NCBI RefSeq assembly: GCF_058153355.1
Contig: NZ_CM177019.1
Reading direction: 5' to 3' (one strand)
DNA length: 64,000 nucleotides
Shown here: piece after piece, positions 58,942-59,100 of the stretch
Numbering within the stretch: position 1 is the stretch's first letter
How the letters are laid out: each line of letters starts with the position of its first letter
Position numbers and translations under genes: made by a program
The notes under the pieces: generated by a model
Told to the model about the DNA's origin: nothing
The model's input: only the letters and a program-made list of their open reading frames with translations
The model's database searches: none

Positions 58942-59100
<159 letters not shown>

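Follow-up and report, generated by a model that had tools for sequence, protein, structure and literature searches.

A group II intron in a BIME of the Escherichia coli chromosome, next to an uninterrupted copy of its insertion site

The window, a stretch of 64,000 nucleotides of Escherichia coli DNA (NCBI RefSeq assembly GCF_058153355.1, contig NZ_CM177019.1), contains the genes ybhB and ybhC, followed by a BIME and then by ybhJ on the opposite strand. A group II intron interrupts the BIME 170 nt 3' of the ybhJ stop codon and has the same orientation as ybhJ. The features discussed below are listed here by their window coordinates. A slash marks an intron insertion point throughout, and target positions are counted from it on the intron strand.

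56535-56582, no strand assigned: left part of the BIME array, a Y-type REP and the linker up to the insertion point; maps to the array of strain EC42405 (L003, 2036-2230)
56571-56582, minus strand: start of the 3' exon at the occupied site, AUCGCAUCGAAC; A at +1 is 56582
58941-56583, minus strand: group II intron, intact, 2359 nt, GUGCGAC...CUACCCGAC; Rfam matches, exact excision restores EC42405
56583-56659, minus strand: domains V-VI and 3' end of the intron; Rfam RF00029, 65.5 bits (gathering score 40), model positions 1-77 of 77
56664-58343, minus strand: intron-encoded protein (IEP), intact, 559 aa, RT, maturase (X) and HNH endonuclease; TIGR04416 and Pfam
58615-58635, minus strand: EBS1 hairpin, intron 307-327; EBS1 UCGUAG is intron 315-320, window 58622-58627
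58685-58691, minus strand: EBS2 CAGAGAA, intron 251-257; covaries with hok alleles, unpaired in the consensus fold
58693, minus strand: candidate EBS2a, intron 249; tentative assignment by the rule of PMC8643678
58942-58957, minus strand: 5' exon at the occupied site; IBS1 CUACGA 58942-58947, IBS2 UUAUCUG 58950-58956, U at -10 is 58951
58942-59088, no strand assigned: remainder of the BIME array, with a Z2-like REP, a Y REP, the linker with the empty site and a Z2-like REP; EC42405 array and hairpin folds
59022-59049, minus strand: unoccupied copy of the site; IBS1-like 59034-59039, perfect; IBS2-like 59042-59048, C at -10 (59043)

The array has the organization of a BIME-2, with tandem units of two inverted REP hairpins, as judged from its period of 92 bp, from an Rfam match to the REP-derived naRNA4 at 58947-59017 and from hairpin folds; its REPs alternate between the Y and Z2 types. 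In the intron-less strain EC42405, the tandem array has a period of 92 and 2.1 copies. According to the fold, the 5' exon of the intron consists of the 3' arm and the tail of a Z2-like REP hairpin; IBS2 is part of the stem and IBS1 of the single-stranded tail. The window holds a second BIME at 16879-16955 (plus strand; Rfam naRNA4, 74.6 bits), the REP tail of which, GGCCUACGA/A on the minus strand, is an unoccupied look-alike with C at -10. A Moco (molybdenum cofactor) riboswitch at 40889-41033 (minus strand; Rfam, 101.5 bits) is unconnected with the intron.

On the plus strand, the intron is flanked by GTTCGATGCGAT (56571-56582) and by TCGTAGGTCAGATAAGATACG (from 58942). The sequence GTTCGATGCGATTCGTAGGTC at 59022-59042 is the uninterrupted 21-nt exact join of both flanks, with the empty junction at 59033/59034. 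This 21-mer occurs once in the window with up to 3 mismatches allowed and is expected 0 times in shuffled sequences, but the match is no independent coincidence, because the two BIME units are tandem copies. Direct reading bore out every coordinate that the initial annotation had given for the flanks and for the empty copy, and its figure of about three differences between the two sites proved to be exactly 3 within 40 nt on either side of the junction. On the intron strand, the occupied site has U and the empty site C at -10 (plus strand 58951 a versus 59043 g), at -19 (58960 versus 59052) and at +13 (56570 versus 59021). The spacing of the two sites had been put at about 450 bp, whereas the distance from the empty junction to the occupied 5' junction at 58941/58942 is 92 bp, or one BIME period. 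Both substitutions within the occupied REP (58951 and 58960, compared with 59043 and 59052) are C-to-U changes when read on the minus strand, the sense strand of ybhJ; RNA of this sense retains G.U pairs at these positions, whereas the opposite strand would have A.C mismatches.

Since the unit at 59033/59034 is the same sequence without the intron, it defines the intron ends, as the initial annotation had proposed, and these ends agree with the 5' GUGCG, with the Rfam matches to domains V and VI, with the register of EBS1 and with more than 30 other copies, in which they are identical. An external empty site leads to the same ends. EC42405, the closest complete genome (100% identity over the 583-bp ybhC flank searched), carries the same two-unit BIME without the intron, and deletion of 56583-58941 recreates its sequence exactly, with no duplication. 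The agreement of the internal and external empty sites fixes the intron ends to the nucleotide.

The termini GUGCGAC...CCCGAC carry the conserved ends of group II introns (5' GUGYG and 3' AY), and Rfam RF02012 (group II D1D4-7) matches the minus strand at 58742-58889 with 112.5 bits, against a gathering score of 34. The IEP scores 369.5 bits with TIGR04416 (cut-off 300) and contains the Pfam domains RVT_N, RVT_1, GIIM and HNH; its closest solved relative is the group II (IIB1) RT of T. elongatus, 6ME0, which it matches over nearly its full length (E=2.4e-187). The presence/absence polymorphism is precise and free of target duplication, with empty sites in EC42405, MT102 and KE55. By its structure, its IEP, its pairing with the target and its presence/absence pattern, the window element is to all appearances a mobile-type, ORF-containing bacterial group II intron. 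Its nearest solved RT is of class IIB1, and we regard this endonuclease-encoding intron as probably IIB1-like.

At the BIME target, EBS1 (UCGUAG) and IBS1 (CUACGA, -6 to -1) form 6 of 6 pairs, next to an A at +1. The initial annotation had made the flank register depend on the exon-binding sequences of domain I, and this pairing falls in exactly the register that it had proposed. EBS2 (CAGAGAA) and IBS2 (UUAUCUG, -15 to -9) form 6 of 7 pairs, the exception being a G255.A-13 mismatch. The stem of the EBS1 hairpin (307-311/323-327) is 97% paired, with compensatory changes in 4 of 6 pairs and in 6 lineages; an RNAalifold model of intron 220-345, which placed EBS1 in a weak G.U-rich stem, was dropped because of these changes. 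Intron position 320 (G or A) tracks target position -6 (C or U), with Watson-Crick pairs in 8 of 10 copies and G.U in the other 2 (L007 and L009), and EBS2 positions 253-255 covary with -11 to -13 of the hok alleles. Two intron types are thereby distinguished: type 1 has EBS2 CAUGAAA and EBS1 UCGUAA and the hok target UUUCAUG-GC-UUACGA/A, and type 2 has EBS2 CAGAGAA and EBS1 UCGUAG and a different hok allele, ..CUCUG-GC-CUACGA/A. One copy (L009) has a compensatory G254A change in EBS2 (CAUAAAA with UUUUAUG), and in the distant relatives L015 and L014 the homologous EBS1 loop pairs with their own -6 to -1 in the same register. Position +1 is A in every copy with a recovered 3' flank and thus offers no covariation by which EBS3 could be placed.

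An additional contact is tentative. In EcI5, the EBS2a-IBS2a pair is essential, and EBS2a lies two nt 5' of EBS2, with IBS2a directly 5' of IBS2 (PMC8643678). The candidate EBS2a, intron position 249, forms a G-C pair with -16 in 8 of 8 type-1 copies, the weakly paired L002 among them, and an A-U pair at the type-2 hok sites; at the three REP sites (A.C) and in L015 the two positions mismatch, in a register that is ambiguous. Given that A249 faces C at -16 at the REP sites, either the EBS2a assignment is wrong or the insertions there were low-efficiency events.

The relatives of the window intron reside mainly in hok. A megablast search of 5426 complete E. coli genomes detected the intron on only two plasmids, at 97.2% identity and inside hok in both cases, and detected no chromosomal copy. 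PLSDB contains about 20 full-length copies on plasmids of Escherichia, Salmonella, Citrobacter and Enterobacter; the fetched plasmids are mostly IncF replicons, nearly all copies interrupt a Hok/Gef gene in its 3' end, and further hok copies were found in draft genomes and metagenomes. The intron interrupts the Glu codon GA/A of the conserved ...LAYE... C-terminus of hok (L001, L004, L005, L024, L034 and others). The window copy is of type 2 and is 99.6% identical to the hok copy of the E. coli plasmid pRHB33-C08_2 (L004). This distribution, together with the covariation of EBS1 and EBS2 with the hok allele, identifies what is by all sequence indications a lineage specialized on hok of IncF-type plasmids: it is hok, and not the BIME, that harbors most copies and with which the EBS co-evolve, as expected of a cognate site. 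At the BIME site, one EBS2 pair is mismatched and the GG common to hok sites at -17/-18 is absent.

Further searches gave little outside this group. The exact pattern of the intron 5' end had no match in 100,044 representative genomes, and a D5 pattern search returned only two distant relatives; the literature searched contained no relevant paper on group II introns inserted in hok, REP or BIME sequences. Two related introns share the first 13 nt of the window copy: one, in Photorhabdus heterorhabditis (L015), lies after codon 9 of an ssb-like gene, and the other, in a Pluralibacter MAG (L014), interrupts a hok-like gene at a point 7 nt downstream of the usual one. A preference for genes of plasmid leading regions may characterize the wider lineage.

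Type-2 introns of different strains occupy three REP/BIME loci of the chromosome: ybhC-ybhJ in the window, a site downstream of rsmC (GUCUUAUCUGGCCUACGA/AGGGCU; L021 and L047) and a site between ybaL and gsk (GCCUUAUCUGGCCUACGA/ACCGAC; L025 and L026). The insertions are precise at the last two loci as well, the rsmC site being empty in KE55 and BM28 and the ybaL-gsk site in MT102. The tail of some REPs followed by GA/A matches the type-2 hok site UCUGGCCUACGA/A, and the REP tails at rsmC and ybaL-gsk equal this site from -12 to +1. The copies at these two loci were retrieved through the exact IEP and other members of one 90% protein cluster, a non-systematic sampling. The copies belong to at least 3 sequence sub-lineages, with the window copy 1 nt away from L021, L025 equal to the plasmid copy, and L026, L046 and L047 sharing another variant, which implies at least 3 independent chromosomal insertions. 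A reading of the window copy as a one-off ectopic jump, in which the REP was irrelevant, was dropped when the exact-protein look-ups returned the REP-tail insertions at rsmC and ybaL-gsk.

Other copies have different contexts. Three (L006, L038 and L046) lie at non-hok, non-REP sites with partial IBS matches (e.g. AAACUGAUCUACGA/), indicating ongoing ectopic retrotransposition. In L028 (GCA_042204225.1, contig ABUXTC010000036.1), the intron is preceded by type-2 hok of a plasmid and followed by the REP site of chromosomal ybaL-gsk; this chimera reflects either an assembly error across the 2.36-kb repeat or plasmid-chromosome recombination between two intron copies. L022, L031 and L032 are intron-only contigs, L031 being present in 18 samples. 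The assemblies break exactly at both intron ends, suggesting at least two intron contexts in those genomes.

We consider it probable that an intron of the hok lineage reverse-spliced into the ybhC-proximal BIME unit by EBS pairing, and that the neighboring unit, with C at -10, is empty because it is a poorer target. Under this proposal, a IIB1-like intron that homes to hok on IncF plasmids would have reverse-spliced into the chromosome, inserting precisely and without duplication in the ybhC-proximal unit of the two-unit BIME, at the boundary of a Z2-like REP tail and the linker. The site would be recognized by EBS1-IBS1 and EBS2-IBS2 base pairing plus the A at +1, with the REP tail and GA/A imitating the type-2 hok site (..CUCUGGCCUACGA/A). 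Such imitation would also explain why the same intron type is found at the rsmC and ybaL REP tails of other strains. A hok copy on a plasmid was presumably the donor of the chromosomal insertion. The adjacent unit, with the common C allele at -10 (a mispair with A252) and a stronger REP hairpin, would be a much poorer target, and this is the most likely cause of its emptiness.

The initial annotation had described the adjacent unit as the same site without the intron. The unit is indeed empty at the same junction, but its C at -10 falls inside IBS2, so that it is not an equivalent target. The four natural type-2 target types all have UCUG at -12 to -9, and the empty unit has UCCG, which puts an A252.C mispair at the center of the helix of EBS2 and IBS2 and changes the predicted duplex energy to +0.4 from -2.8 kcal/mol at the occupied site. 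The two C-to-U changes also make the REP hairpin of the occupied unit (-15.2 kcal/mol) weaker by 4.2 than that of the empty unit (-19.4 kcal/mol). The C residues at -19 and +13 of the empty unit are also present in the occupied rsmC or gsk sites and are therefore non-discriminating, leaving -10 as the only position that separates occupied from unoccupied sites. The REP tails followed by GAA that were found with C at -10 all proved to be without the intron: yahG-yahH in K-12, the site at window 16879, and the ybhC units of both K-12 and O157. A -2 mismatch in IBS1 is an additional feature of three units, namely the first of the K-12 ybhC units, that of O157 and the second one of 2013C-4282. At ybhC-ybhJ, the U allele at -10 is rare (at most 15 of 5426 genomes), and it predates the insertion, since it is present in EC42405 and 2013C-4282, which are intron-less at the locus. 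From the pairing rules and this small sample of natural sites, we infer that C at -10 is what prevents insertion at the empty unit. One may argue instead that the neighbor is fully competent and is empty only through the rarity of insertion, a single event to which the three base differences are irrelevant. IBS1 and +1 are the same in both units, and the 5426 genomes have no chromosomal intron though the rsmC and gsk sites are present in most of them; emptiness alone therefore says little, and an empty neighbor is to be expected even for a good target. We nevertheless think this rather unlikely, because -10 lies in the middle of a helix that is defined by covariation, because the occupied type-2 sites of four locus kinds all have U there, with no C site seen to be occupied, and because the occupied allele is the rare one. 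Far less credible still is a history in which each unit originally had an intron and one of the two direct 2.36-kb copies was lost by recombination with the other. Long tandem repeats are unstable in principle, but the deletion would also have taken the 92-bp unit that lies between the copies, whereas both units are present and collinear with the intron-less EC42405.

The initial annotation had gone further and suggested that the repeat is the homing site, with many potential targets across the genome. In its favor, the 5' exon is a REP tail and two REP loci besides that of the window are occupied in other strains. However, the main home of the intron is hok, which holds most copies, including the closest plasmid relatives, and with whose alleles the EBS covary, and the number of targets was overstated. 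The ybhC-type linker junction is found in 4014 of 5426 genomes, at 1-4 per genome (median 2), and 4 of 4 fetched examples lie between ybhC and ybhJ. The 20-nt target motifs of the Y and Z2 types have, as exact matches, about one occurrence each per genome, giving roughly 1-2 exact REP-tail targets, and the fetched matches are the gsk and rsmC loci, including those of K-12 derivatives. These counts were obtained with 30-nt blastn probes that require an exact match of about 19-20 nt and are hence lower bounds. Within the window, matches to IBS1 plus A are at chance level (4 versus 5.5 expected), and the BIME-junction pattern with either base at -10 had no match in JGI metagenomes. We thus find it improbable that the BIME is a homing site with many equivalent targets. 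A repetitive element as target is right in kind, with few targets, about two exact sites per typical genome by these counts. Reverse splicing of a hok-lineage intron into one favorable BIME unit remains the reading that we prefer.

Mechanistically, this is ordinary group II biology: standard retromobility guided by EBS-IBS pairing. Ll.LtrB and RmInt1 reportedly undergo ectopic retrotransposition at low frequency into IBS1/IBS2-like sites, precisely and without duplication. Those introns belong to classes IIA and IIB3 and the events were laboratory events, whereas here a natural repeat serves as the look-alike and the same loci were hit in several strains. IIC introns insert after terminator or attC stem-loops, are without an En domain and EBS2, and read the structure of the hairpin. 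The likeness of the window insertion to theirs, intergenic and just 3' of a palindromic hairpin, is superficial: IBS2 of the window lies in the 3' arm of the REP and is read by base pairing, and the IEP has an HNH domain. IS1397 and ISKpn1 likewise land on chromosomal REP/BIME sequences but by a different mechanism, as they are said to be BIME-specific elements that use DNA transposases and insert into the REP loop with duplications. The closest solved IEP is that of the Thermosynechococcus elongatus IIB1 introns (Th.e.I3/TeI4h; PDB 6ME0 and 6MEC), a family that has reportedly also spread to multiple genomic sites. These introns are cyanobacterial and chromosomal and diverged in their EBS during proliferation, in contrast to the window type, which has one EBS set and uses look-alike sites.

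Two IIB1 introns of E. coli itself are relevant. EcI5 (E. coli pO157; endonuclease-encoding, used as a targetron) recognizes +1, IBS1 (-6 to -1) and an IBS2 upstream of it, and its EBS2 is situated around intron position ~250 (PMC8643678). The window intron has the same host species, belongs to a lineage that is likewise plasmid-borne with an RT-X-En protein, and is EcI5-like in its IBS1/IBS2/+1 recognition and in an EBS2 near ~250. Unlike EcI5, its lineage has its home in hok, and the EBS2a-IBS2a pair is not clearly kept at the REP sites; a megablast of the window intron gave no match to pO157-type plasmids, which we assume to be present among the 5426 genomes. EcKTE56.groEL is an E. coli IIB1 intron described as specialized on the groEL stop codon (bioRxiv 10.1101/2024.12.23.630110). 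Like the probably IIB1-like hok lineage, it is aimed at the extreme 3' end of one conserved gene; its target is groEL, not hok, and its abstract reports no REP mimicry.

An empty tandem copy beside an occupied site is an ordinary finding, yet it provides a nucleotide-exact definition of the intron. The loci also amount to a natural specificity experiment, with one intron type, four kinds of occupied sites and several near-identical empty ones that differ at one IBS2 position. A IIB-type, endonuclease-encoding and hok-specialized lineage that reaches the chromosome via REPs resembling its plasmid target was described in no paper of the literature searched. It bears on the ways in which retroelements of plasmids become established in chromosomes and on the prediction of off-targets for IIB1 targetrons, laboratory K-12 having two exact sites. 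More speculatively, and with the balance of our judgment still against it, UCUGRCCUACGA/A REP tails (at rsmC, at ybaL-gsk and in rare ybhC-ybhJ alleles) might constitute a secondary chromosomal niche of the lineage, creating plasmid-chromosome homologies and subject to a C/U switch at -10. If true, these 2.4-kb homologies between plasmid and chromosome could mediate plasmid integration, as the hok/gsk chimera L028 hints, and single REP polymorphisms such as the -10 C/U change would switch loci between refractory and permissive.
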